From a virus, in IMG/VR virus record IMGVR_UViG_3300022902_000004, positions 62,268 to 126,267 of that record: a stretch of DNA of 64,000 nucleotides; one strand, 5' to 3'. Below, piece after piece: positions 2,047 to 46,772 of the stretch. The first letter of the stretch is position 1, and each line of letters opens with the position of its first letter. A program made the translations under genes and the position numbers. The notes under the pieces were generated by a model that was given only the letters and a program-made list of their open reading frames with translations, had not been told where the DNA came from and made no database searches.

Positions 2047-3327
2047 TTATGAGGAACCGAGCGCATTCGTCAGTGCCTGTTGTGCTTTATCATAACTTTG
2101 CTGGGAATTTTCGTAAATCTCTATGAGTTGCTTAGCCTCGGGGATGTTCGTTCTTTTCTTGAGTTGCTCAATCGTTTTTGAATCTAGCTTGGTTTCTTCA
2201 CGGAGTTTTTTGATCTCGGCTGCGAAGCTTGCAATACCAAGTCCTCCGGCTCCGCCAATTGCCTGCTCATTGAAACTTACCTTTCCAGCATTGAATGCCA
2301 CTTTGCGGGCTGCATCAGCCAGCATCGCATCGGTGACCTTTTCTACATCGACGCCTTGTGTCTGGGCTGCGGTAGCTTTGAAGTCCTGGCTGGCTGCTAA
2401 CTGCTTTGCCTGCTGCTCGATTTGCGGTACGATCTTTTCGAATTCTGATATATCACCAGCATCCAATTGATTTTTTGAAACGGCCGCCTTCAGCACTTCC
2501 TGGAAATCCTCAACTGAGTCCGTCCCAATCAGTTTGGCAACCACAAGCATTCGTTGTGTGGCAGACGCAACCTCCTGCTGGACACTAAGCTGATTCTTGA
2601 TTGAGTCTGCTGCAACTTCATCAAATGCCTGATCGAGACCAGTATCTTTGAAGAAGTCCGCCAACCATGCCTGCTCGCTGCTGGTATCATACTTGGCAGC
2701 TTTTTCTTTTTGTTCGCGGAGAACTGATTCGTTTGTTTCCCCGCCAAAGAAGAGCCTTGATAGCTTGCTTTTTATTGTTGAGCCTTTACCAGCTTCTTCC
2801 GATTGCAACTTCAAAATTGCATTCAGTGCATCGAGTTCTGTTGGCATTCTCCACAACTTTTCAAGGAGTCGTTCCCAAGATTCGCCTGATATAATTTCGG
2901 CTGCCGTTGCACCGGTTTTGATTCCGGCCGCCAAACCTTGTGCCGCGAAGTATGCTGTTGGCATCAATGAAAACGAAAGGAGCGGGTCGGCGTTCTGGAT
3001 TGCATCGAGTGAGTCGCCGATGATGGGTTTCCATTCTGCACGAAGCATAGCACGACGCTCTTCAAAGGCCTTTCTTTTTTCAATCAACTTTTTTGAGTCG
3101 AACGCCAGAAGGGTTCCCAAGATAAGGCGTGTCGAGTTACCGATGTCCATGGCTGTCAACTTCAGTGCTTTGAAAATGTCCGTGAATGGTTTCACGAATG
3201 CCTTTACCGCTGGGCCGGAACCAGGATCCCACCTTTGTTCAACGATTACCTTAGCTTCACGGAGAATCTTCTCATACTTTCGCTTTGCCGTCAGGTAATT
3301 TATTCTTGTTTCTAAGTTTGATGACAT
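2047..3327 (-). CDS. hypothetical protein (426 aa), alpha-helical/coiled-coil rich
   Basis: Long ORF with heptad-like charged stretches; no enzymatic motif recognised. Confidence 0.5.
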   Translation of the reverse strand: MSSNLETRINYLTAKRKYEKILREAKVIVEQRWDPGSGPAVKAFVKPFTDIFKALKLTAMDIGNSTRLILGTLLAFDSKKLIEKRKAFEERRAMLRAEWKPIIGDSLDAIQNADPLLSFSLMPTAYFAAQGLAAGIKTGATAAEIISGESWERLLEKLWRMPTELDALNAILKLQSEEAGKGSTIKSKLSRLFFGGETNESVLREQKEKAAKYDTSSEQAWLADFFKDTGLDQAFDEVAADSIKNQLSVQQEVASATQRMLVVAKLIGTDSVEDFQEVLKAAVSKNQLDAGDISEFEKIVPQIEQQAKQLAASQDFKATAAQTQGVDVEKVTDAMLADAARKVAFNAGKVSFNEQAIGGAGGLGIASFAAEIKKLREETKLDSKTIEQLKKRTNIPEAKQLIEIYENSQQSYDKAQQALTNALGSS

Positions 3328-3372
3328 TGCAACCCCTTGATTGTATTATAAATATTGAATCGGCAACGTGTT

Positions 3373-3735
3373 CTAAAGGACCCCAGAAAGCTTCAGAAGC
3401 CTTTGGGCATGTAATACCCCATGGTACGGCCGCCGGGACGTTCTGGGGACGACGTGGGACTCTAAGATGTCATCTTTGGGGAGGTTGCGATTGATGTCGC
3501 GTAGTTTACCACGCAGAACCTTCAGAATGCCGTTGTAGTGACTGCGTGCCGCCGACCGAAGTTTTTCTTCATTACGGGAATGTGTCGCATCAGCAATCCT
3601 CTTTTCAATGTCACCACGAGCTCGTTCGCTGTAGAGTTTCACCACTCGACCGGTAAGACACTTATGCTGGCTGCCTTTCTTCTTTTGCTCGATAAGGACG
3701 TTGATATTCATGTCCGAACCAATTGGAATTATCAT
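3373..3735 (-). CDS. hypothetical basic protein (120 aa)
   Basis: ORF with 4-nt overlap to the next gene. Confidence 0.3.
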   Translation of the reverse strand: MIIPIGSDMNINVLIEQKKKGSQHKCLTGRVVKLYSERARGDIEKRIADATHSRNEEKLRSAARSHYNGILKVLRGKLRDINRNLPKDDILESHVVPRTSRRPYHGVLHAQRLLKLSGVL

Positions 3736-12672: not shown

Positions 12673-13539
12673 ATGTACATTACTAAAGAAATTTTCTCTG
12701 TCTTCAAAAAAGATGGTTCACTAAGCACACGACAAAAAATCATTTTCGTTTTTGAATGCGACTCATGTCATATGACATACAAAAAGCCTAGACACAAAGT
12801 TAGCAAATCTAAATCCGGTCTCACGTTTTGCTCTGTTTCATGTCGCCATGCGGCGAACAAAAAAGGAAATAAACTTTGTGAAAGTAGAGAAAAACATTGT
12901 ATTGAAAAATATGGCACCTCAAGTCCAACAAAATTACTGGAAACACAGGAAAAGGGACGAGCAACGCTTAGAAGAAAATATGGTGATGACGTTAGTTCTC
13001 CGCTGGCTGTTCCCGGTGCCAAGGAGAAGCGCCGGAGAACTCATCTTGAAAGATATGGTGCTGAAGAAACATTTCAAAATGAGCAATTTGTCAAGAAGCG
13101 TGCTGCAACGTGGTTGAAACGTTATGGTGTCCCATATCACCCATTCCCAAAAGATGCAAATATCAAGTCTCGACTAGCCATGGCAAAGATGCCTCATAAA
13201 TGGTCGTCCAAAGTAGAGCTTGAATATGGTGTGCTCCTCCGTGAACGCTTTGGTGCAGATGATGTTTTTGCACAAAAATGGATAAATAGGTGGCCTATCG
13301 ACTTTTATATCAAATCAATTGACACATATATTCAATTCGACGGCGTTTATTGGCACGCGCTAAATTGTTCGCTCGATGTACTCAAAGAATCAAAATCGCC
13401 ACGAGATAAAGCAAGACTAAAAAAGTGGGAAGCAGATCGAACACAAGACGAATGGTTTAGTTCGCATGATCTGCGATTAGTCAGGATCACAGATGAGGAG
13501 TTCAAGTACTCTCCTAGCCATTGTATTGACATACTATAG
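12673..13539 (+). CDS. free-standing homing-endonuclease-like protein (Zn-finger, K-YG repeats, C-terminal Vsr/PD-(D/E)xK-like FDGVYWH motif)
   Basis: AAGGAG RBS 6 nt before ATG. CxxC...CxxC N-terminus, repeated (K/R)YG modules, C-terminal PIDFYI...IQFDGVYWH. It is inserted on the opposite strand between tdk and the epimerase. Confidence 0.55.
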   Translation: MYITKEIFSVFKKDGSLSTRQKIIFVFECDSCHMTYKKPRHKVSKSKSGLTFCSVSCRHAANKKGNKLCESREKHCIEKYGTSSPTKLLETQEKGRATLRRKYGDDVSSPLAVPGAKEKRRRTHLERYGAEETFQNEQFVKKRAATWLKRYGVPYHPFPKDANIKSRLAMAKMPHKWSSKVELEYGVLLRERFGADDVFAQKWINRWPIDFYIKSIDTYIQFDGVYWHALNCSLDVLKESKSPRDKARLKKWEADRTQDEWFSSHDLRLVRITDEEFKYSPSHCIDIL

Positions 13540-13540
13540 T

Positions 13541-14545
13541 TCAAATTAGTCCTTTTAGTTTCAATATTTTCTCAAGCCCTTGTTCGACTGTCGTTTTGAC
13601 GTCCCACACATTCCGGAGCCGAACGGTTCCAGCACATGTATGCTTCACATCTCCCGGGCGAGAGGGTGACTTATTGATTATAATCTCCGGACGATGCTTT
13701 TTCAAGATTTTCAGGATTTCGTTGCTAGAGACAGATTTGCCAGTACCTACGTTGAGGCGCACGAAGTTTTCAGTCGTTTTCCGGATCGCCATTGCTATCA
13801 TTGTGCCGACGACATCATCGACATATACCAGATCTCGTGTCTGAGTTCCATCGCCGTCAAGTCGCAATGGTTTCCCGGTAGCAATAGCATCAACCCATGC
13901 CGTAATGGCTGTCATGTATTTCGTGCCATCGGCTCTCGCCGGCCCATATACATTGAAGAATCTGAGTGCTACCGCTGGGATCCCATACAGATCTGCAAAC
14001 TGCTTTATGAATTGTTCGCAAACAAGCTTTTGGAGACCATATGGGCTGACAGGTTCACATGTATCTCGTTCATCATACCATGTGCTATCTTGGTCACCGT
14101 AAACAGATGATGAAGATGCAAAGACAAATCGTTCCAAATTTGCTTTACGACACGCATCGAGAAGCTTCACCGTCTTCATGACGTTTGTGTCTGTCGTCTC
14201 AACCGGATGTTCAACAGAATATTCCACGCGAGGATTTGCAGCAAGGTGGAACACGTGTGTGTAGCCTCCTGTCACTAACTCACGAAGAACAACTGCATGC
14301 GTAAAATCACCATTCACAACAAGACAATCATTGAAATCAGGAAGCTGTTTTCGGAACTGGCGTATCATAGACGGCAGCACAGTTCGAAATTCAACCTCTT
14401 TGTCACGTAGATTGCCCAGCGTCCCAGAGGAGAAGTCGTCCACGATAGTGATGGACCAACCCTTCACATACAGCTCTTTTACGAGGTGTGAACCAATAAA
14501 CCCCAGCCCACCTGTGATCATCGCGCGCTTTCTATTTACTTTCAT
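13541..14545 (-). CDS. NAD-dependent sugar-nucleotide epimerase/dehydratase (GalE/UDP-sugar 4-epimerase family, extended SDR)
   Basis: Rossmann MITGGLGFIGSHL, catalytic YGLQK (YxxxK), FASSSSVYG, about 330 aa. Confidence 0.8.
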   Translation of the reverse strand: MKVNRKRAMITGGLGFIGSHLVKELYVKGWSITIVDDFSSGTLGNLRDKEVEFRTVLPSMIRQFRKQLPDFNDCLVVNGDFTHAVVLRELVTGGYTHVFHLAANPRVEYSVEHPVETTDTNVMKTVKLLDACRKANLERFVFASSSSVYGDQDSTWYDERDTCEPVSPYGLQKLVCEQFIKQFADLYGIPAVALRFFNVYGPARADGTKYMTAITAWVDAIATGKPLRLDGDGTQTRDLVYVDDVVGTMIAMAIRKTTENFVRLNVGTGKSVSSNEILKILKKHRPEIIINKSPSRPGDVKHTCAGTVRLRNVWDVKTTVEQGLEKILKLKGLI

Positions 14546-15371
14546 TTTTATATTGCCTCCTTAGTGATTGAATACTTTTATCAAAAAACGAATAAGATAG
14601 CTTTTGCAAATCATCATGCATTAGTATTCTGTAGAGGATGTTTATTTCTGTTGTGTAGCGCTCAGCAGCACCTTTTTTAGCCATAAGCTTGTTATGTTTC
14701 TCATATCCTTTTACCTCTTCTAAAACTGTTTTGCCATCTAATTGCTGTATTAAAAAATCAGGCACATAATGATGTTCTGTGTCACCTAACTTATACGGAA
14801 TGCAAATTCCATGATTTTTCGTCCATGCACTTACGTTATCATCAATGTCAAGAATTTTCATTCTCAAATATTCATAAAATGAATCAAATCGATTTTGTTC
14901 ATTCGTTTTTGTTGATTTGTAAGTACCTGCGATATATCTTGGGTGTGTGGGTATTTCACCGTTAGCGATTTTCAGCGATCTTGTTAGTGACATTTGTCTT
15001 TTAGATGCTATAGAATGCTTTTTGCCTTGAAAACCGACAGAGCGACGTTTTCCATAATTCATTTTTTCTTTTGCGGCGGGCGTCATACTTTGAAGACCGA
15101 TCTTTACATTTTTGCTCATGAGCTCCTTTGATAAAGCTGTATGTTTTTTGCCATAAAAAGGATTGCCTTCGCCCATCATCATGTTTGACATTTTATTTTT
15201 CCACTCTATAGAATGTAGCCTCCCACGATTTACACAATTACGACTACAAAATAATCGCTTTCCGGCACGAGCCTGTCGACTGTTTAGCCATTTTTCTATA
15301 TGACAACTGTTACATACAAAAAGATACATCATTCGACCATTTATTTTTTTTCGTTGTAATATCATGTACAA
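14532..15371 (-). CDS. free-standing homing-endonuclease-like protein (NUMOD-like NPxYGK repeats plus C-terminal PD-(D/E)xK-like YVPDF...EEVKG)
   Basis: CxxC Zn finger (CNSCH...CSRNC), GEGNPFYGKKHT repeats, HHYVPDFLIQ...LEEVKGY. Confidence 0.55.
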   Translation of the reverse strand: MYMILQRKKINGRMMYLFVCNSCHIEKWLNSRQARAGKRLFCSRNCVNRGRLHSIEWKNKMSNMMMGEGNPFYGKKHTALSKELMSKNVKIGLQSMTPAAKEKMNYGKRRSVGFQGKKHSIASKRQMSLTRSLKIANGEIPTHPRYIAGTYKSTKTNEQNRFDSFYEYLRMKILDIDDNVSAWTKNHGICIPYKLGDTEHHYVPDFLIQQLDGKTVLEEVKGYEKHNKLMAKKGAAERYTTEINILYRILMHDDLQKLSYSFFDKSIQSLRRQYKNESK

Positions 15372-19200: not shown

Positions 19201-19820
19201 CCCATGAACTTTGTATCAGGAAACTCCTGGAAAATGATTCCGGCGGGGCGACCTGAAACGCATGCCGTAGAAACTACAAGGCCTTCGCCATGCTCCTTTA
19301 GCATTTCGTAATCGATTCGAGGGAATCTATAGAACCCTTCCATGAACGATCGCTTCACCAGCGTGAACAGGTTGGCTAATCCAGTGGCATTTTTTGCAAT
19401 GACAACGAGGTGGTGACGTCGGTTTACATTGAAACCGGAGATGTCGACACGGGATTCGCCAACGTCTTCGACCACAAGACCGGCATCACTTCCGTCACCG
19501 GTTTGAGCTGTTCCCTTCTTTTTGGCGTCTTTCATAAGCGCTTTGTTTTTCGTCCACTCTTTGATAGAAGGAACGAAGTAGAATTCGACGCCGTAGATTT
19601 GACGGTATTTTTGGCCCTTCTTTTTTAGTTTCTTAGCGTGCGCGTGAGCATGTGCGAGACCGTTTCCGTTTCCGTGATCCGTTAGTGCCCAGCCATCAAG
19701 TTCATTCGATAAGCAGAAGTCGATATGCTGGTGGGGTTGCCCGAGTCCATCATACGCGCTGAACGTCGAATGAGAATGTATCGACACAAATCGATCCGGA
19801 GGAGTAAGAATACCTGTCAT
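16257..19820 (-). CDS. dnaE: DNA polymerase III alpha subunit (DnaE-type replicative polymerase, with PHP domain)
   Basis: The N-terminal PHP domain is FVSIHSHSTFSAYDG...DHGNGNG, and the palm is GAGRGSGAGSLVNYLLGITHVDP. The single continuous 1187 aa ORF shows no intein-sized insertion. Confidence 0.9.
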   Translation of the reverse strand: MTGILTPPDRFVSIHSHSTFSAYDGLGQPHQHIDFCLSNELDGWALTDHGNGNGLAHAHAHAKKLKKKGQKYRQIYGVEFYFVPSIKEWTKNKALMKDAKKKGTAQTGDGSDAGLVVEDVGESRVDISGFNVNRRHHLVVIAKNATGLANLFTLVKRSFMEGFYRFPRIDYEMLKEHGEGLVVSTACVSGRPAGIIFQEFPDTKFMGLKPELVDDANLRGKIVGNIENMIDRFTDCVGVDNFFLELQFNDLGAQDLTNRCVLDAAKKTGTRLISTADSHFPGPDLWEAREIYRNLLPGRMKVGEEIKLPEREEMKTMLYPKNAKQMWDEYLKCRDKYDWYEGTEDLVRGSIENGHDVAWQMCDEVWFDTTAKLPSFDRPDKSAFDQLRDNVKQALVDEGLSKDKVYVARALSELSDIKFLGFENYFLTLQKVMHLAEQKTLMGAGRGSGAGSLVNYLLGITHVDPIPHGLLWGRFLGRHRVGWPDIDVDAGDRDELIFAARELFGDDAVIPVSNFNTLKLKSLVKDVSKFFGVPFTEVNAVTGPLEKEVERKSRDPNMEKSMFVLKHDDCMKYSKAYKAFMEKYPDVEHNIKALFMMNRSVGRHAGGVLICPELEKSMPLIKVRGELQTPWTEGVNIRNLEENGFLKFDFLGLKQMKMVENCIRRILKKETGKAPTFADIKRFYDEKLNCRYVDPDDQSVFDNVYKKGKWPGIFQFTSSGARKFCKDAQVNNVTELAAVTAIYRPGPLKANVHRDYVKAKANPAAQVYDHPVIKEVLEETCGFIVFQESFMLLAVKLAGFTEGDSDKMRKTLVKKDLTSLGKKSSEKEALEKKFVDGCVEKSGMNRKKAQDLFDKIAYFSLYGFNKSHAIAYAIDSYYGAWLMTHYEKEWLATVLETENGSPKGLSRALAEIKEMGHAIAKVDVNYSDFEWTFAEAANAFVPPMAAVKGIGKVAMREIINERPFKTLDEMFFDENGNWKLSKANKTALKALCKIEAMDSLEDIHNGSVLNYRQLLFALTDDKNYIKLKRGNLGMTAAAIKKANKLGEVPPLFLETELARFADISDWTRAEKVEMSYDLTSAANTELLFPPKLMAHLKSKGIPKLHDIPQGHEGIGWMCIETIQRKKTKNGKPFMRCRVIDDESRIAWLRVWGKEKIKVEPYTLWLTYTKHDADWGHSTASYKMKQIL

Positions 19821-20728
19821 TTAGATTCCCAGTGTTGTATTGTGGATGAGTATCGTCCACAAAGATCATTATATTCAGTCTCGCCAATTATTTCAATTTT
19901 TACTTCAGGGTACTGTGCTTCGAACTCAGCAAACTTTTCCTTCGCTCGGGGTGTCCACCAGCCCTTCACCTCATAGTACAAATCGCCTACCTTGAAGTCC
20001 GGCGTGTATGTTCGGCCGCTTTCCAGCACGAAACTATCTGGTTCGTATTCGAACACTTTTCCTTCGTGAAGCAGGTAGCGTGCAAAATTGGCTTCCCAGC
20101 AACTACGAACATAAAAGCCCAAATCATCCCGAGTACCGCCTCTACCGAAAAACGAATGCTTGTTCCTTCCTTCACGAACTCGCTTTGCTGCCGCGATTCG
20201 CATGTTTCGTTTTGTTTTCTCGGAGTGCTTGAAGTTCTTCAGCCTTTCGCTGGTGAGTTTTCGAGCCTCAGGTGTTTTCATCCAATGCTCAACGCCGTGG
20301 TTATCAATGTACCCCTGCTTCACTTTTTCACGGAACTCGTCAGTTTTCCATCTTGCGGCTAGTTCCCGGGACATTCTTGCTTTCGTTTCATCTGGTATTT
20401 GATAGCCGCCGGCTTCACGAATCGTTTTCATCGAAGCAACCATCTTCGCGTTCTGTTCGTCAGTCCGGGTATAGCTTCCATTTGCCATTCTGGTGGCCAC
20501 CATTCCGCTCTGGACGCACGGAAAACATTTGGACACCTGTTTCTTTTTGCTGGTGTCTTGGAACGTTCCAGAGCAAACCAGGCACACCTTCTCAGTCGGT
20601 GGATGTTTCGTGTGCCTGGTTTTGTTTCTGAGCTTGTACCCGCAGGTCTTTCCGCAGGTTTTCACTGTTCCGTTTTTCGTTTCAAATTTGCACTCGCAAA
20701 CTTGGCATGTTTTGGTGTGTATCTTCAT
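19817..20728 (-). CDS. free-standing homing-endonuclease-like protein (C4 Zn finger plus C-terminal PD-(D/E)xK-like)
   Basis: CQVCECKF...CGKTCGYK, and the C-terminal TYTPDFKVGDLYYEVKGWW. Its stop overlaps the dnaE start (ATGA). Confidence 0.55.
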   Translation of the reverse strand: MKIHTKTCQVCECKFETKNGTVKTCGKTCGYKLRNKTRHTKHPPTEKVCLVCSGTFQDTSKKKQVSKCFPCVQSGMVATRMANGSYTRTDEQNAKMVASMKTIREAGGYQIPDETKARMSRELAARWKTDEFREKVKQGYIDNHGVEHWMKTPEARKLTSERLKNFKHSEKTKRNMRIAAAKRVREGRNKHSFFGRGGTRDDLGFYVRSCWEANFARYLLHEGKVFEYEPDSFVLESGRTYTPDFKVGDLYYEVKGWWTPRAKEKFAEFEAQYPEVKIEIIGETEYNDLCGRYSSTIQHWESK

Positions 20729-22248: not shown

Positions 22249-23178
22249 ATGATACACACATTGCGTCAATTGGTCCGTGAAACATTACTTGCTGAGAAGC
22301 GTATGCAGCCCGTTGGTGGGGAACACTTGGTAAAACGATTGAATCTAGAAATCAAGAAACTTTTATCTGAACCTGACATAAAAAATGAAATGAAAGCAAA
22401 ACTGCGCGGATCGACAGGTCTTCGTGACGATGACAAACTAGAAAAATTTGTCCATGATGACATTTCGAATGCGTCACACATCGCACAACTCCATCGAAGC
22501 TCAGGATACGTCGTTATAGAGTTTTATATTTCTCAATTTTTGAACTCGGGACCAATTAGAACGATGGCCGAAAAACGTGCAGACGACATAATTCGAAAAA
22601 CATCTAAAAACTATGGATGGTCTGTTCTTTCTGCAAACCATCGAGCACCCCCAGCCAGAGAGCTTCGTTATAACCTAGAAAGAAACTATGGGAATCGTAT
22701 AAGCGAAACAGAGGAGGTGTTATATCACGTGACGCGGTCACGTGACGTAGAAAGGATCCTGCGACAAGGGCTCACCCCTCGTCAAGCATCACACGAAACC
22801 GAAGAAGATAAACAAAACGACAGAGATTCAGGAGAACAACTGCAACAAGGGCGACAATATTCGCCCCGGGTGTACGTCACACCAAGCCTTGAGCTGGCAG
22901 ACGAGCTCTCCTTTTCATTTCAGCAGGATGGTTCAGACATGGGCGAGTACGATTATGAGGACTATACGTTTCTTAGAATTGACACGAGCAAATTGTTGCC
23001 TGGAACGAAATTTTATGAAGATTCAGAATTCGCCACGTCGCGTTACAAAGGCCAGTCATTCTGGACGTATTCTAGAATCCCAGCGGTGGCACTTTCAGTT
23101 GATATCGAAAGCCTCGCCGGCTACAAAAAATACCTGCGTGAGGTTGAGGCAGCAGCGCATGAAGACCCATGGTACTAA
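22249..23178 (+). CDS. Tpt1/KptA-like (RNA 2'-phosphotransferase / ADP-ribosyltransferase fold) protein, paralog 1, with conserved N-terminal leader
   Basis: The C-domain EVLYHVTRSRDVERILRQGLTPRQ...RVYVTPSLELADE resembles KptA [34 protein letters not shown]. The N-terminal leader is TLRQLVRETLLAEKRM. Confidence 0.45.
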   Translation: MIHTLRQLVRETLLAEKRMQPVGGEHLVKRLNLEIKKLLSEPDIKNEMKAKLRGSTGLRDDDKLEKFVHDDISNASHIAQLHRSSGYVVIEFYISQFLNSGPIRTMAEKRADDIIRKTSKNYGWSVLSANHRAPPARELRYNLERNYGNRISETEEVLYHVTRSRDVERILRQGLTPRQASHETEEDKQNDRDSGEQLQQGRQYSPRVYVTPSLELADELSFSFQQDGSDMGEYDYEDYTFLRIDTSKLLPGTKFYEDSEFATSRYKGQSFWTYSRIPAVALSVDIESLAGYKKYLREVEAAAHEDPWY

Positions 23179-24119
23179 ATAGTATGCATATGATATTTAA
23201 TGGTATGCCTAGCACATTACGCCAATTAGTCCGTGAAACACTGCTCGCTGAGCGACGCATGCAGCCCATCGGAGCAGAACATCTGGTGAAACGGTTAAAT
23301 GTAGAGTTCGGCAAAATCCTAAACTCACCTGCTGTTTTGAAACAAATGAGGAATGATGCCATTGCATCAATTGGCGAGAAAGGTGATCACACCGCAATCG
23401 ATGAAATTGTCGCATTAAAAATTAAGGAAAATTCAGATCCAGTCGGAAGCCACATTGACGACGCCGGCTACATCAACGTCATCATTCGTGTTGATCGCAT
23501 TTTAGCCGACGGCCCATTCATGGATTCATTTGAAAAAAACGTCGCCGAAATGTTCAAAACAACAGTTGGGAATTATGGCTGGTCGATACAGTCACTATCT
23601 CGTTCTTGGCATTCCCGTTGGATGATGTACGTGATAGAACGAAACTATGGCGACCAACAGCTCAATATGTCAAAAAAAATATACCATTTGGCGCGGTCAC
23701 AGGACGTAAAGAAAATCCTGAAAATGGGATTAATTCCGAAAAGACCATTGCAACTCGGGAATCATGATGAAGACTCAGAACATCTCGAGGTGGGTCGACA
23801 GTACGCGCCACGCGTTTATGTCACGACAAGCCGTAAACTAGGGAAAGAGCTTGTCAGTTTGTTCAGTGAGGCTGGTGGCTATAAAGGATCAGACAATATG
23901 GAGCATTATACTTTGCTCAAGATCAAAGGCCGGAAACTTTTACATGGCACTAAGTTTTATGCTGATGCAGAATTTGTATACAGCGATAAATGGAATGATC
24001 GCTCATTTTGGACGTACTCAAGAATTCCTCCGGAAGCAATCTCAATCGACAAAAAATGGCTCGCGGAATACCAAGAGTTTATGTCCCGTGATGATGATGA
24101 CGACCCAAGCTGGCCCTAA
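23169..24119 (+). CDS. Tpt1/KptA-like protein, paralog 2 (tandem duplicate)
   Basis: IYHLARSQDVKKILKMGLIPKR...RVYVTTS, and the N-terminus STLRQLVRETLLAERRMQPIG. There is nucleotide-level identity to paralog 1 over the leader (CAATTAGTCCGTGAAACACTGCTCGCTGAG). Confidence 0.45.
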   Translation: MVLNSMHMIFNGMPSTLRQLVRETLLAERRMQPIGAEHLVKRLNVEFGKILNSPAVLKQMRNDAIASIGEKGDHTAIDEIVALKIKENSDPVGSHIDDAGYINVIIRVDRILADGPFMDSFEKNVAEMFKTTVGNYGWSIQSLSRSWHSRWMMYVIERNYGDQQLNMSKKIYHLARSQDVKKILKMGLIPKRPLQLGNHDEDSEHLEVGRQYAPRVYVTTSRKLGKELVSLFSEAGGYKGSDNMEHYTLLKIKGRKLLHGTKFYADAEFVYSDKWNDRSFWTYSRIPPEAISIDKKWLAEYQEFMSRDDDDDPSWP

Positions 24120-24454: not shown

Positions 24455-25306
24455 CTAAAAGTTTCCTCGCGCCCAACCTGATGCCAGTTTGTCGAGAACA
24501 AATGCAGATCCACCGAATATATCATATGCCTGCTTGAGCCATGCCGCCGGGCCGGCCAACGATGTTAATGAGGATCCAATAAGTTTGCCGACCATATCAC
24601 CCAGCATGCCAATCAACATATCAGTTAATTCATCAACGATTATGTCTTTGACGCCTTGCGCTGCAGCTCTGGTAATGTCCCCTGCTGTCATTTCATGTAT
24701 TTTTCTTAATACTGGCATAACATTTTCGGCAAGCCAACTAAATCCAAGCAGGCCGGCTGCTGCCGTCAACAATCCTTTCCACCCAGATGCCTGCATGTTA
24801 TCCCTAGCATTTTCCAATTTTGCTATAAGAGCCTTAACGATTTTTGAAACTGGTCCCATATTTAGCTCGTCCAGCCTTTTTATGAGCTTGTGCAAGTACT
24901 TCAAAATAGTCTTGGCTCTTTTCTTCATTAACTGTTGCAAACCGTTTTTGAAAGTATCAAGCTTGTCTGGATCTGTAACTGCCGCCGCCATGGCTGCTAT
25001 AACACCTTTTGCATTTCTTCCATAGGTTTTTAATGCGTTAGCCGGGACAGCGGCTTTCTGCTTGATGTTTTCAATACTGTCACCAACAAACTCAGCAGCA
25101 GATGACCACCATCCTTCAAATAGGAAATGTTCACGGAGTATGTACACTTGGAGCTTATTGTTTCCGCGAGACTCTACAAGAACATTCCGATCAATACCCA
25201 GGACACGCGTTACATATGCTTCATTAAATTGATGCTTAAGCGCTGAATCTGCGATTAGTGTTTCATTTACAAATCGCCGCAAGTTACTATTCATCGGTAC
25301 TTTCAT
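24455..25306 (-). CDS. hypothetical protein (283 aa) carrying leader-like N-terminus
   Basis: N-terminus MKVPMNSNLRRFVNETLIAD. Confidence 0.45.
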   Translation of the reverse strand: MKVPMNSNLRRFVNETLIADSALKHQFNEAYVTRVLGIDRNVLVESRGNNKLQVYILREHFLFEGWWSSAAEFVGDSIENIKQKAAVPANALKTYGRNAKGVIAAMAAAVTDPDKLDTFKNGLQQLMKKRAKTILKYLHKLIKRLDELNMGPVSKIVKALIAKLENARDNMQASGWKGLLTAAAGLLGFSWLAENVMPVLRKIHEMTAGDITRAAAQGVKDIIVDELTDMLIGMLGDMVGKLIGSSLTSLAGPAAWLKQAYDIFGGSAFVLDKLASGWARGNF

Positions 25307-25580
25307 CCTGCTTTATCTTCTTTGCAGCAGACTTTAGCAGCGGAAATATCCTGGTGATGTCATCTCCTGCATTCAAAATCGCTATAAAGAACTCGGCAAT
25401 TATATTATCTTGCAATCTGGACCTATCGCTAGTCGTCATCGCTTGCATCAGCTTTTGTTTGTTAATTTTTTGTCCTAGGCCCAATTTCGTGATGACCGAT
25501 GACAATTCATCATTTGTGTTTACTTGTTCAGTCAACGTTTTTCGAATAATATTTGTTAGCTGTCGTCTTGTGAATTTCAT
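25287..25580 (-). CDS. small protein of the leader family (97 aa)
   Basis: N-terminus MKFTRRQLTNIIRKTLTEQ. Confidence 0.35.
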   Translation of the reverse strand: MKFTRRQLTNIIRKTLTEQVNTNDELSSVITKLGLGQKINKQKLMQAMTTSDRSRLQDNIIAEFFIAILNAGDDITRIFPLLKSAAKKIKQDESTDE

Positions 25581-34235: not shown

Positions 34236-34562
34236 TCATCCGCATGCATAATCTGACGACCTATAATCCTCGTCACAGGTACCATAGTTACGAAGTGCCG
34301 TTTCGGCATAATCATATATGGCGTCGTCCGACATTCCGGCCTTGTCCAGGAGATACATAGCTTGCCGGTGCTGATCGTCGTACTCGTCGCCTGTGATGTT
34401 AACCTCGTTGGCGAGATGTTCGAGGGCTTCCTGGTATCCTGGATCATTATTCATCGCGGCAGGGTTCTCAGAGTGCACAACTAAAACACGATATGGACCA
34501 CTTAGTTGGTCTTCTACAGATTCTCGGATCAGTCGCCGGAGCTGGTTTTTTGTAATTTTCAT
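34236..34562 (-). CDS. leader-family small acidic protein A
   Basis: N-terminus MKITKNQLRRLIRE, then a unique acidic body. Confidence 0.45.
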   Translation of the reverse strand: MKITKNQLRRLIRESVEDQLSGPYRVLVVHSENPAAMNNDPGYQEALEHLANEVNITGDEYDDQHRQAMYLLDKAGMSDDAIYDYAETALRNYGTCDEDYRSSDYACG

Positions 34563-34951
34563 GTGGCGTTTCTCTTCGGTGTAGGTTGCTCGGTATGGAT
34601 GTGCCAGTCACGATATTCATCCGCTGACATATCATCGTCATCGTAGTCATCACGTTCGCCGGTGTAACCGAATGTGTCAACAATCCACTCAGCGTTTTCA
34701 GTCGCTGTTTCTTCATCAGCACCTGCACCTTCAAACGCGCGTGCTATGTCCATGACATGTGCGGTGTAGTCGTCGTTGGCGAACATGACAGCCAACGCCG
34801 ATGCCGCCTCTTCAGATTCCGGGGAACCCTGAGTGGCAGACATAAAGTTATATGTGTGCGTACGCTCGTCATCTTCATCATCTCCAGGCATCATATGTGG
34901 CATTGTCTGCTCTCGGATCAATCGTCGAAGCTGGTTTGGCGTGATTTTCAT
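34559..34951 (-). CDS. leader-family small acidic protein B
   Basis: N-terminus MKITPNQLRRLIRE; 4-nt overlap with A. Confidence 0.45.
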   Translation of the reverse strand: MKITPNQLRRLIREQTMPHMMPGDDEDDERTHTYNFMSATQGSPESEEAASALAVMFANDDYTAHVMDIARAFEGAGADEETATENAEWIVDTFGYTGERDDYDDDDMSADEYRDWHIHTEQPTPKRNAT

Positions 34952-34954
34952 TGT

Positions 34955-35305
34955 TTATTCCTCAAAGAATTGGTGAAAGATTTCTTCTGCCTGCCATGCG
35001 TCATCTTCATCAAAACCCATGGCCTCTGCTAGCTCCTCTAGCACACCTTCCCAAGATTGCCCCCAGGAAAGCCGACCGTCTGTTCCGACTTGACCGTAGC
35101 CCATCCCACGACCTCCGCTGAATTCGCCTTCATCTTCATGGCGCTGAAATTCTTTGACGATATAATCTACGACCTCAGGCTGAAGACTTAATTCGCGGGC
35201 TTTGGCGTGGGCCTCTTGCGGTGTCATAGCCCGGTCGGATGATGTTGTGTAGCGTGAAACTTGCTCACGAATTAGTCGACGTAGTTGGTTTTTTGTAACT
35301 TTCAT
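34955..35305 (-). CDS. leader-family small acidic protein C
   Basis: N-terminus MKVTKNQLRRLIRE. Confidence 0.45.
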   Translation of the reverse strand: MKVTKNQLRRLIREQVSRYTTSSDRAMTPQEAHAKARELSLQPEVVDYIVKEFQRHEDEGEFSGGRGMGYGQVGTDGRLSWGQSWEGVLEELAEAMGFDEDDAWQAEEIFHQFFEE

Positions 35306-45545: not shown

Positions 45546-45793
45546 TCTTGGGTATACACGATATGTTTGCCGAATTGCACATCTTCTTTGCTGTTTTTAT
45601 TGATAGAAACCTGTGCGATTTTTGTTACAAGCTCCCCGGTGGGTGTTTGCTCAACGAAGACATATTCCTCCATCATACCAGGCCGGCACTCGGGACTTTG
45701 TTGCCAGGATCCCGGTAGAATGCCTGGCGTTGGTGGCGTCATAGTTTGCAAAACCTTGACCGCTTGGTCAAATCGTTCTTGTGTCAATAACAT
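45542..45793 (-). CDS. hypothetical small protein (83 aa)
   Basis: 4-nt overlap. Confidence 0.3.
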   Translation of the reverse strand: MLLTQERFDQAVKVLQTMTPPTPGILPGSWQQSPECRPGMMEEYVFVEQTPTGELVTKIAQVSINKNSKEDVQFGKHIVYTQE

Positions 45794-46772
45794 TCTTTAT
45801 TTCCTGTCGTTTCATTTCGATGTCGTCTGATTCCCAAACCACTATAACAGTGTATCCCATTCGTCGTAAGTTTTCACTTCGTTTGGCATCGGCAGCCCAT
45901 TTTTCTTCAGCAAGAAACGATTGGCCCCGAAGGCGCACATTGAATTTGGCTTCATAGAGTTTCGGGTTGGCATGGACATAATCACCATTGATTTCGACAA
46001 TGACCTTTTTCTTTTCGTTGAGCTCATCAGCAAAGTAGGCGCCCACTCGTTGCTCTGATACAAAGCCCAGTTTTGTCAGGCCGAGCTCTTTCCGGAGGCG
46101 TTGGTGGAGCTTTGACAACCTGTTTTTGGAACCGGCGAACATCTTACGTAATGTCGCTGCTTTTTGCGCCGGGGTTCTGTTTTTTCTCCAGTGCGCTTGT
46201 TTCTTCCTGTATGATTCCTTTTTCCAATTTCGTTTTGAACCCTTCCCTATCGCTTTCTTCCAGGTCTCGTCCATGACGACTTCACCTTTTGCCCACCTAG
46301 CTTTCATCTTCTTGGATGAACCTTTGGCGATATGGGGAAGCTGCCCGACGTTTTTGACACCGTACTTCTTCTTCACGACCTTCTTGATTTTTTCTTGTGT
46401 TTTCTTTAGTGAAAAGCCGGCGTTCAGTCCGGAGCACCTTTGTGAGCAATACGATTTTGGTTTGCCACGGACGAAAGTCACAGCCTTCTTGCAGGACTTC
46501 TCCTTACATTTGGGCTTGCCATACTTTTTGATATAGAGTTTTTCTCTTGTCTTGAATTTGTCGTGAGTAAGAGCATATCTCTTGAACACACCCCTGGCAA
46601 ATGCAGGAGGCAGATCGCAAAGCCCACAAATGCACTTTGGTGGTTTGCCATCAAGCTTGTGCTTAATGACGTAATCGACCATTTCCATTTTGTGGGCTTT
46701 GCGGAGATGAGTAGTTAGCTGTCCGCCTAAATTATCCTTGAATCCTTTTTTGCATTCTTTGCACTTGATCAT
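45768..46772 (-). CDS. free-standing homing-endonuclease-like protein (Zn fingers, K-rich, C-terminal Vsr/DUF559-like VIVEINGDYVH)
   Basis: CKECKK...H..H, CICGLC, multiple K-rich repeats, the C-terminal FADEL...VIVEINGDYVHANP. It sits next to the RNR gene. Confidence 0.5.
   Translation of the reverse strand: MIKCKECKKGFKDNLGGQLTTHLRKAHKMEMVDYVIKHKLDGKPPKCICGLCDLPPAFARGVFKRYALTHDKFKTREKLYIKKYGKPKCKEKSCKKAVTFVRGKPKSYCSQRCSGLNAGFSLKKTQEKIKKVVKKKYGVKNVGQLPHIAKGSSKKMKARWAKGEVVMDETWKKAIGKGSKRNWKKESYRKKQAHWRKNRTPAQKAATLRKMFAGSKNRLSKLHQRLRKELGLTKLGFVSEQRVGAYFADELNEKKKVIVEINGDYVHANPKLYEAKFNVRLRGQSFLAEEKWAADAKRSENLRRMGYTVIVVWESDDIEMKRQEIKNVIDTRTI

Follow-up and report, generated by a model that had tools for sequence, protein, structure and literature searches.

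Within a 64,000-nucleotide (nt) window of a viral genome (IMG/VR record IMGVR_UViG_3300022902_000004, positions 62,268 to 126,267; all position numbers refer to this window), six nuclease genes are found beside, or in the edge of, conserved genes of nucleotide or DNA metabolism. As judged from their sequences and genomic settings, these genes very probably represent active or recently active homing endonuclease genes (HEGs) of three nuclease classes, designated HEG1 to HEG6. From the same patterns we infer cleavage activity, target sequences and homing itself. The genes that an earlier note on the sequence of this window had described add new members to known homing-endonuclease classes, a result that is modest on its own and of moderate novelty. 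The part of the analysis most worth experiment concerns short inserts opening with a stop codon, which interrupt a kinase-like gene next to HEG4 and, in related phages, the polymerase gene dnaE next to members of the HEG3 family.

Distribution of the genes in related phages

A near-identity search with 24 kb of the window against GenBank phages returned no match, and the best DnaE relatives among the cultured phages in GenBank are less than 30% identical. Because no close cultured phage is available, the comparisons rest on IMG/VR and metagenome contigs. The contig IMGVR_UViG_3300031603_000002 from IMG/VR, termed REL in the following, is collinear with the window over positions 3596-58944 at 79-85% nt identity (~83%). 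Five of the six HEGs are precisely absent from REL between conserved flanks, and the presence/absence comparison proposed in the earlier note thereby yields empty sites for HEG1, HEG2, HEG4, HEG5 and HEG6. HEG3 alone is shared. Its REL counterpart is 83% identical at the amino acid (aa) level with a dN/dS of 0.10, and the gene is therefore maintained as a protein.

Distant homologues, with overall identities of 37-53%, occupy the same sites in other phages. Two HEG1 homologues (45-49% identity) are oriented divergently to the 5' end of a thymidine kinase (TK) gene, one of them with a different neighbour on the other side, and a HEG5 homologue (~52%) lies directly downstream of a ribonucleotide reductase (RNR) gene. 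Of the HEG4 homologues (37-44%), two immediately precede a gene of the same kinase family, while others adjoin a thymidylate kinase (Tmk) gene at its 5' end or precede a RecA-like gene. When HEG4 by itself was searched against viral contigs, no relatives were returned. At each of the 25 loci examined, the HEG3-family gene is located upstream of dnaE. Viewed from dnaE, this upstream site is empty in loci L002, L003, L005, L009, L011 and L013, contains a GIY-YIG gene in L004 and harbors HEG3-family genes in L001, L010 and L012. Such a pattern, sporadic in distribution and fixed in site, is the signature that homing endonuclease genes leave in populations, and the homing reading is well supported. 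With the empty sites in REL and the homologues at equivalent positions in distant phages, the original proposal of mobile genes beside DNA-metabolism genes is upheld. Base composition also differs: HEG1, HEG2, HEG4 and HEG6 have GC contents of 0.34-0.40 (HEG2, 0.34), compared to 0.458 +/- 0.026 for the window.

Insertion junctions and the proposed route of spread

In a mixed infection, each enzyme would cut the HEG-less allele within a conserved stretch that codes for a motif and adjoins the place where its own gene is inserted. The candidate target stretches are the 5' ends of tdk and the epimerase gene, the PHP motif of dnaE, the Walker A motif of the kinase and the 3' ends of fpg and the RNR gene. 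Recombinational repair from the HEG-bearing genome would then copy the gene together with some flanking DNA. Diverged flanks do replace native sequence at the junctions, affecting approximately 28 codons at the start of tdk, 10 at the start of the epimerase gene, 13 at the end of the RNR gene and the C-terminus encoded by fpg, as well as the kinase gene with its donor-type 5' end. This replacement is consistent with co-conversion from a distant donor. Since every HEG family is linked to one particular motif-coding stretch in a core gene, the families provide testable enzyme-target pairs.

The junction of HEG2 involves a second open reading frame (ORF) of 274 aa. In REL, dnaE abuts the epimerase gene with neither HEG2 nor this ORF between them. 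In the window, the HEG2 cassette is inserted directly after epimerase codon 3; ATGAARCAA, formerly the start of the epimerase gene, has become that of the 274-aa ORF, and the epimerase begins with a different N-terminus that overlaps the 3' end of HEG2. At the HEG6 site, Fpg measures 215 aa in the window and 260 aa in REL, with similarity lost after approximately residue 165 (window 32224-33671), and the final codons, QNKV plus stop, are common to HEG6 and the REL fpg gene. Because Fpg is shortened and these codons are shared, the insertion of HEG6 is concluded to have removed the C-terminal (finger) part of Fpg/Nei.

Introns were not found by Rfam at the gathering threshold across the whole window. 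An intron as the carrier of HEG4 or any of the other genes was rejected on this result, on the lack of any relevant Rfam hit at E <= 10 around HEG4 and on the lack of non-coding room. The description of the genes as free-standing is thus correct in that they reside in neither introns nor inteins, although HEG4 is located within the kinase gene and HEG6 takes the place of the 3' end of fpg.

Nuclease classes and domain architecture

All six ORFs are present at the coordinates first reported, and each contains a nuclease-related module according to Pfam and PHROGs. A motif scan of the window ORFs of at least 50 aa matched HEG1 to HEG6 alone. DUF7487 (E 8e-15) is the sole Pfam match of HEG1, and HEG5 matches DUF559 above the Pfam threshold (E 6e-8). 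HEG2 matches NUMOD3 (1e-11), TnsA-like_N (1e-5; 26.4 bits against a cut-off of 26.5), DUF1064 and a PHROG endonuclease (2e-14). HEG4 passes the same TnsA-like_N cut-off with 42 bits (1.4e-10) and also matches NUMOD3 (3e-9). HEG3 has a weak Phage_endo_I match and PHROG matches to 'endonuclease/Holliday junction resolvase' (1e-11 to 1e-13) and 'endonuclease' (7e-13). The sixth gene had been called a GIY-YIG/NUMOD3 gene, and HEG6 indeed matches both GIY-YIG (6.9e-10) and, in four stretches, NUMOD3 (2.4e-15) above threshold, as well as PHROG 314 'homing endonuclease' (1.4e-32).

The other five genes had been credited with one common architecture, which does not hold. In an all-versus-all BLASTP comparison, HEG2 and HEG4 are the only pair with sequence similarity (22%, E 1e-4), and both the repeat modules and the nuclease families differ among the five. 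What they do share, as described, is an N-terminal zinc finger of the type CxxC...(F)CSxxC; with the HEG1 family profile, matches were obtained to the zinc fingers of the ribosomal protein L24e and to a MYM-type finger. NUMOD3 (NPxYGK) repeats had been assigned to all five but are confined to HEG2, HEG4 and HEG6, whereas HEG1, HEG5 and, more weakly, HEG3 contain DUF7487-type 'KYG' helical repeats. The assignment of the C-terminal domains to Vsr-like PD-(D/E)xK nucleases is valid at the superfamily level and for HEG1 and HEG5, whose strings FDGVYWH and EINGDYVH are Vsr/DUF559-like. It merged two families, since HEG2 to HEG4 with their YVPDF...EVKG strings resemble T7 endonuclease I and TnsA instead. 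The genes follow a modular plan, in which an N-terminal zinc finger is followed by a DNA-binding repeat region (NUMOD3 or KYG) and a C-terminal nuclease; the order is reversed in HEG6. Where the window has an empty site, REL carries a 322-aa HNH gene (L001 4523-5491, equivalent to L025 16092-17060), which combines a HEG1-type zinc finger and DUF7487 KYG repeats with a C-terminal HNH motif. This HEG1-type scaffold bearing an HNH motif provides direct evidence of nuclease-module shuffling.

HEG1 and HEG5 are related to the Vsr-like ('EDxHD') homing endonucleases. This family was described between 2005 and 2011, with its prediction in 2009 and characterization in 2011, and includes free-standing phage members; one of these, Hef of T-even phages, takes the place of mobE between nrdA and nrdB. 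The HEG5 family profile (32 relatives) matches the DUF559 structure 3HRL (1.6e-5) and the catalytic domain of I-Bth0305I, 3R3P (0.005). Residues D249, E260, H267 and D295 do not vary among 32 sequences, and N262 of the window protein is located at the position of Vsr His64, where I-Bth0305I also has an Asn. For HEG1, an AlphaFold2 (AF2) model with a pLDDT of 94 retrieves Vsr (1CW0/1VSR, probability 1.00, TM(target) ~0.5) and the DUF559 structure 3HRL in Foldseek. D210, D223, G224, H228 and D255 are invariant in the HEG1 family, and the alignment places Gln221 at the position of the conserved Glu of the EDxHD family. These residue equivalences were assigned by eye against the Vsr motif and the published description. 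HEG5 shares with I-Bth0305I, Hef and the Vsr-like genes of the GOS 'fractured gene' arrangements the C-terminal Vsr fold and the Asp/Glu/His/Asp set, and its position beside the RNR gene has a parallel in the free-standing members known beside nrd genes. HEG1 shares the fold and the Asp/His/Asp residues, and both genes place their DNA-binding modules N-terminally, like the family. Differences exist in that I-Bth0305I contains two NUMOD2/helix-turn-helix motifs, whereas HEG1 and HEG5 use zinc fingers and DUF7487 KYG repeats; in that HEG1 has Gln for the family Glu, retains the Vsr-like Tyr-Trp pair and belongs to DUF7487; and in that neither gene lies in an intron or between split inteins. HEG5 is a new EDxHD member and HEG1 (DUF7487) a divergent relative. 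A literature search on DUF7487 found nothing specific, which is not proof of novelty. The full-length HEG1 model additionally matches mitoribosomal proteins of Toxoplasma and Tetrahymena in Foldseek (~180-250 columns, probability 0.6-0.9), which suggests, at the level of the model, a shared architecture of helical repeats and a nuclease-like domain.

The nuclease modules of HEG2, HEG3 and HEG4 share the E...PD...(D/E)xK core of T7 endonuclease I (PF05367) and the TnsA N-terminal nuclease (PF08722). The HEG3 family profile (33 relatives) matches T7 endonuclease I (1M0D) at E 2.9e-10 with the motifs RSxWE, YTPDF and EVKG aligned, and T7 endonuclease I also provides the best Foldseek matches of the HEG3 AF2 model (pLDDT 89). 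E212, D244, E253 and K255 are invariant in this family and align to the RSxxE, PD and ExK motifs of T7 endonuclease I. The catalytic motifs of the other two were read directly as LLE...PDI...EVK in HEG4 and PDF...EVK in HEG2, the upstream Glu of HEG2 not being assigned. The class is large: the HEG3 family has 463 IMG/VR matches in a pattern scan and the HEG4 family comprises 1,841 clusters at 50% identity. In contrast to T7 endonuclease I, a stand-alone, domain-swapped dimeric resolvase of four-way junctions, the nuclease of HEG2 to HEG4 (~100 aa) forms the tail, the C-terminal third, of a multidomain protein of 270-300 aa. In their genomic distribution, these genes behave as site-specific mobile genes rather than as a resolvase or a transposase subunit. 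HEG2 and HEG4 differ from Tn7 TnsA in matching its N-terminal nuclease domain only, and none of the neighboring genes is transposase-like. Pfam scans of the six HEGs and their neighbors revealed neither a TnsB/TnsC-like partner nor a TnsA C-terminal domain, though terminal inverted repeats were not searched for; because partner gene and C-terminal domain are lacking, HEG2 to HEG4 are not considered Tn7-like.

Homing with a restriction-endonuclease-fold active site has a precedent in I-Ssp6803I, a small protein that is not known to carry accessory DNA-binding modules. I-Ssp6803I is a characterized PD-(D/E)xK homing endonuclease that is encoded by an intron in a tRNA gene. The superfamily fold is its sole link to HEG2 to HEG4, with no relationship detected in sequence, and it is absent from the PDB matches of the HEG3 family profile and from the 50 best Foldseek matches obtained with the HEG3 model. 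A literature search for homing endonucleases of the endonuclease-I type found no experimental study, which again does not prove novelty. The genes had been proposed as an under-described family; Vsr-like homing endonucleases are already published, whereas the class combining zinc fingers with an endonuclease-I-like nuclease is large and no paper characterizing it was found. This class would add a nuclease scaffold to the homing repertoire, and its modular DNA-reading domains are possibly useful in engineering. HEG6, finally, is an ordinary Seg/I-TevI-type gene with an N-terminal GIY-YIG domain, NUMOD3 repeats and a C-terminal DNA-binding tail. Like T4 Seg genes, it is free-standing beside a DNA-repair gene, but it replaces the last ~45 codons of fpg/nei instead of lying between genes.

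HEG4 within a kinase gene

HEG4 splits a P-loop kinase-like gene (window 26365-27844, minus strand) at the codons of its Walker A motif. In REL, the kinase is a single uninterrupted ORF of 177 aa with weak AAA_14/AAA_28 matches. In the window, a 5' fragment of the resident gene is stranded upstream of HEG4, and the remainder of the gene is preceded by a further copy of these 5' codons that differs at synonymous positions (Table 1). This synonymous divergence suggests that the duplicated segment is a donor flank copied during repair rather than a target-site duplication. The remainder is 88% identical to REL at the aa level with a dN/dS of 0.14, indicative of purifying selection. At the junction, the window reads GAT-TGAT-AAC TGT GGA AAA ACT, whereas REL reads GGT CCG GAC AAT TGT GGC AAA ACC without an insert. 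The insert of 4 nt places a stop codon directly after GAT and recreates GAT one base later. On sequence grounds, a ribosome that hopped from the first GAT to the second would produce the canonical Walker A motif GPDNCGKT again.

The HEG4/kinase junctions are identical in eight independent assemblies, which rules out an assembly error as the cause of the frame break. A split intein of the 'fractured gene' kind was also rejected, as only nine residues follow the break and no C-intein is present. Since searches with the kinase found only one further locus, its insert remains an observation from a single lineage.

Stop-first inserts in dnaE

A related arrangement is found at dnaE. From the sequence comparisons we infer the PHP-motif stretch of dnaE, uninterrupted in the window, as the probable target region of the HEG3 family. 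In relatives without HEG3, this stretch reads ...HxHSxFS-T-(M/F)DGLG..., with a single codon between FS and (M/F)DG; the clade of the window has no insert here either. Where a HEG3-family gene is adjacent, dnaE has 5-16 extra nt after HxHSxFS in 19 of the 25 loci examined in IMG/VR, and the inserts always open with TAA, TAG or TGA directly after the Ser codon. A reverse pattern scan found at least 19 insert sites, partly on the same contigs as the forward set, and a HEG3-family gene lies 68-168 nt upstream in 16 of 19. Two loci (L139, L191) have kept the insert without a HEG3-family gene within 1.6 kb. The scans for HEG3-family and dnaE loci took in 80 and 120 loci, and the insert loci are found among L042-L067 and L130-L237 (e.g. 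L050 ~3480, L056 ~3960). When both sets are pooled, the triplet before the resumed frame is a Ser codon (TCT or TCA) in 11 of 16 distinct inserts, as in TCC-TAG GTA TCT-ACA TTT GAT, and ACG, ACC, ACT or TTG in the remaining five. Lengths of 5, 7, 10, 11 and 16 nt break the frame, and both the upstream peptide of ~25 codons and the downstream ORF are conserved.

This arrangement resembles the MobA/gene 60 cassette of phage T4, in which an insert prevents self-cleavage and is bypassed by ribosomes, and which a survey describes as 'unique'. In both systems, an endonuclease gene adjoins a target gene that carries a stop-first, non-coding insert (here, the kinase of the window and dnaE in 19 of 25 loci), and some loci retain the insert after loss of the endonuclease gene. 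A matching codon before the resumed frame (GAT to GAT in the kinase, 11 of 16 inserts in dnaE) may be a further parallel. Unlike the 50-nt gap of T4 gene 60, with its take-off stem-loop and nascent-peptide signal, the gaps in dnaE and the kinase span only 4-16 nt and no conserved stem-loop was detected; the interrupted genes are dnaE and a kinase rather than a topoisomerase gene, and the enzyme is endonuclease-I-like rather than the MobA endonuclease. By analogy, the stop-first inserts may, as a tentative proposal, form a second, independent and widespread class of cassettes that couple immunity to a homing endonuclease with a ribosome hop. The insert would disrupt the endonuclease recognition site, which would lie within a conserved target-gene motif, so that the carrier genome is not cut, and the ribosome would hop over 4-16 nt from the codon preceding the stop to the matching codon, thereby restoring the protein. 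If this is true, translational bypassing would be a recurrent phage solution and not confined to the single lineage of T4 gene 60, and the inserts would represent its natural, diverse, short-gap counterpart. A literature search on bypassing in dnaE found nothing specific, which leaves novelty unproven.

It is also quite possible, if short of probable, that the inserts are not hopped, and that two polypeptides reassemble or that the kinase is simply dead. Genes that are split beside homing endonucleases and function as two pieces are documented for T4 gene 39/60 and Aeh1 nrdA, an ATG follows the insert after one codon in L056 and L057, and the kinase insert is known from a single lineage. Two pieces are difficult to reconcile, however, with L050-type loci, in which no ATG, GTG or TTG occurs for ~25 codons after the insert, and with the conservation of upstream peptide and downstream ORF despite frame-breaking lengths. 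A Ser codon before the resumed frame in 11 of 16 inserts is unnecessary for a split gene, though this matching codon could be a by-product of how the inserts originate, and the two loci that hold the insert without a nuclease gene likewise speak for hopping over splitting. For the kinase, a dN/dS of 0.14 in the remainder argues against a dead gene, and a P-loop fold is not expected without the preceding beta-strand.

Stop-codon reassignment was rejected as an explanation of the dnaE inserts, as all three stops are used and many lengths are not multiples of three. No consistent signal of conserved RNA structure was obtained at the putative hop sites (minimum free energy z-scores mostly -1.6 to +1). 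A hairpin of 5-7 bp over the R-F-V-G codons is present ~25 nt upstream of the dnaE insert in many of the loci L043-L065 and others (e.g. AACCGA-TTTG-TCGGTT), in differing registers. In more distant relatives, dnaE itself is divided into two to four ORFs (L010 10007-15348, L013 9995-14902, L014 1122-8788, L015 7910-11074+), and these pieces bear intein-like termini (...HN[CS]) and are separated by endonuclease genes of Vsr-like or other types. Such an organization is the 'fractured gene' arrangement known from GOS metagenomes.

Alternative explanations for the six genes

Several points weigh against homing as the explanation for the six genes. The empty sites come from one close relative, and deletion in that lineage would look alike at each single site, though five precise deletions are unlikely. 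Non-nuclease ORFs, namely the 274-aa ORF and ORF 29876-30769, are polymorphic as well, so some of the turnover is not driven by nucleases. The purifying selection on HEG3, shared with REL, also fits a domesticated role. With respect to the nuclease assignments, HEG1 carries Gln in place of the Glu that is conserved among EDxHD members, PDB searches with the single sequences of HEG1 and HEG5 gave noise only, so that family profiles or models were needed, and Foldseek E-values are modest (~0.005-0.04) despite probabilities of 0.99-1.0.

The genes could instead encode ordinary, non-mobile phage nucleases, the endonuclease-I-like ones for junction resolution or DNA maturation and the Vsr-like ones for mismatch repair or host-DNA degradation, whose patchy occurrence reflects accessory-gene turnover. 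T7 endonuclease I, which the HEG3 profile matches at E 3e-10, is a resolvase, several HEG1 and HEG5 homologues are named 'very-short-patch-repair endonuclease' by JGI, and HEG3 is conserved in REL with a dN/dS of 0.10. Yet five nuclease genes of two superfamilies within 35 kb exceed housekeeping needs by far, and each of the proteins joins its nuclease to zinc fingers and to long sequence-reading repeats typical of homing endonucleases. Each family is tied to one neighbor gene in distant phages but missing from the closest relative, and HEG4 and HEG6 damage the genes they occupy; a non-mobile role is considered very improbable. Somewhat less remote, but still improbable, is a passive movement of the genes as cargo, either in cassette exchange through recombination at short repeats or promoter-like sequences, or via a transposon-like route involving the TnsA-like domain. 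Polymorphic non-nuclease ORFs (ORF 29876-30769 with its 37-bp repeat, the 274-aa ORF with HEG2), the imperfect ~40 bp duplication of kinase codons that flanks HEG4 and the TnsA-like_N match of HEG4 above the Pfam threshold can be cited for such movement. The missing Tns partner and TnsA C-terminal domain in the Pfam scans argue against it, as does the synonymous divergence of the kinase duplication, which points to a donor flank instead of a target-site duplication. Moreover, the site fidelity of each nuclease family in distant phages is a prediction of nuclease-driven homing.

Gene set and coordinates

According to Pfam, the genes neighboring the HEGs encode a thymidine kinase, an NAD-dependent epimerase, DnaE, ThyX, RNR and an Fpg/Nei glycosylase. 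The list of neighbors in the earlier note is thereby confirmed for TK, epimerase, DnaE, ThyX and RNR, but not for its glycosyltransferase, for which there is only a sub-threshold GT2 match. The likely ATG starts of HEG2, HEG4 and HEG6 are located at 15365, 27740 and 33003, respectively. In JGI, ENA and Logan assemblies, at least 23 contigs encode a protein identical to HEG1, the longest contig measuring 318,267 bp; for this reason, the source of the window is probably a widespread uncultured jumbo phage with a DnaE-type polymerase.

Table 1. Window coordinates of the nuclease genes, of the segments without counterpart in REL and of the associated gene fragments.
Feature	Positions	Strand	Description
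HEG1	12673..13539	+	zinc finger, DUF7487 helical KYG repeats, C-terminal Vsr-like nuclease; divergent from tdk 5' end
HEG2	14532..15365	-	zinc finger, NUMOD3, endonuclease-I/TnsA-like PD-(D/E)xK nuclease (YVPDF...EEVKG); 3' end overlaps epimerase start
HEG3	19817..20728	-	two zinc fingers, helical repeats, T7-endonuclease-I-like nuclease; stop overlaps dnaE start (ATGA)
HEG4	26916..27740	-	zinc finger, two NUMOD3, TnsA/endonuclease-I-like nuclease (FRSLLE...YVPDI...VEVKP); within P-loop kinase-like gene
HEG5	45768..46772	-	C2H2-like and CxxC zinc fingers, KYG repeats, DUF559/Vsr-like (EDxHD-type) nuclease; 53 nt downstream of RNR gene
HEG6	32224..33003	-	GIY-YIG nuclease, NUMOD3 repeats, C-terminal helix-turn-helix-like tail; replaces fpg/nei 3' end
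ORF, 274 aa	15425..16249	-	shares insertion with HEG2; weak GT2-like match (E 2e-4, below cut-off)
HEG1 segment	12566-13540		no REL counterpart
HEG2 and 274-aa ORF segment	14516-16239		no REL counterpart
HEG4 segment	26869-27767		no REL counterpart
HEG6 segment	32249-33174		no REL counterpart
HEG5 and small ORFs segment	45361-46865		matches only 64 bp in REL
Stranded resident kinase 5' fragment	27737..27811	-	MSQQIVIFDGPDNCG plus 9 aa; TGA overlaps HEG4 ATG (ATATGA)
Second kinase 5' copy	26866..26926	-	MQANEVKARQKIIIFDGPD, diverged at synonymous sites; ends in insert GAT-TGAT-AAC (insert 26866-26869)
Kinase remainder	26365..26865	-	NCGKT... onward; under purifying selection
dnaE PHP-motif codons	19740..19778	-	HSHSTFS-A-YDGLG, uninterrupted in window

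Further differences between the window and its relatives

Apart from the nuclease genes, the ORF at 29876-30769 (plus strand, 297 aa, GC 0.395, no Pfam match) is absent from REL and represents a polymorphic insert that does not encode a nuclease. On either side of it lies one copy of an imperfect direct repeat of 37 bp (29780-29816 and 30773-30809), which is located within the 5' leader of an NT5C-like gene. REL itself contains a second extra gene besides its HNH gene, encoding a 349-aa protein similar to S-adenosylmethionine (SAM) methyltransferases, next to thyX (L001 ~2604-3653), where the window has no corresponding gene. A family of small, very acidic proteins occurs in several copies at window positions 34236-35305, 25287-25580, 24455-25306 and 23169-24119, and further in L002 (3331-4077), L003 (5527-6192) and L011 (8489-8947). 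Its members share an N-terminal motif of the type MKITKNQLRRLIRE, with the variants LRRFVNETL and LRQLVRETL, and the copy number differs between the window and REL.

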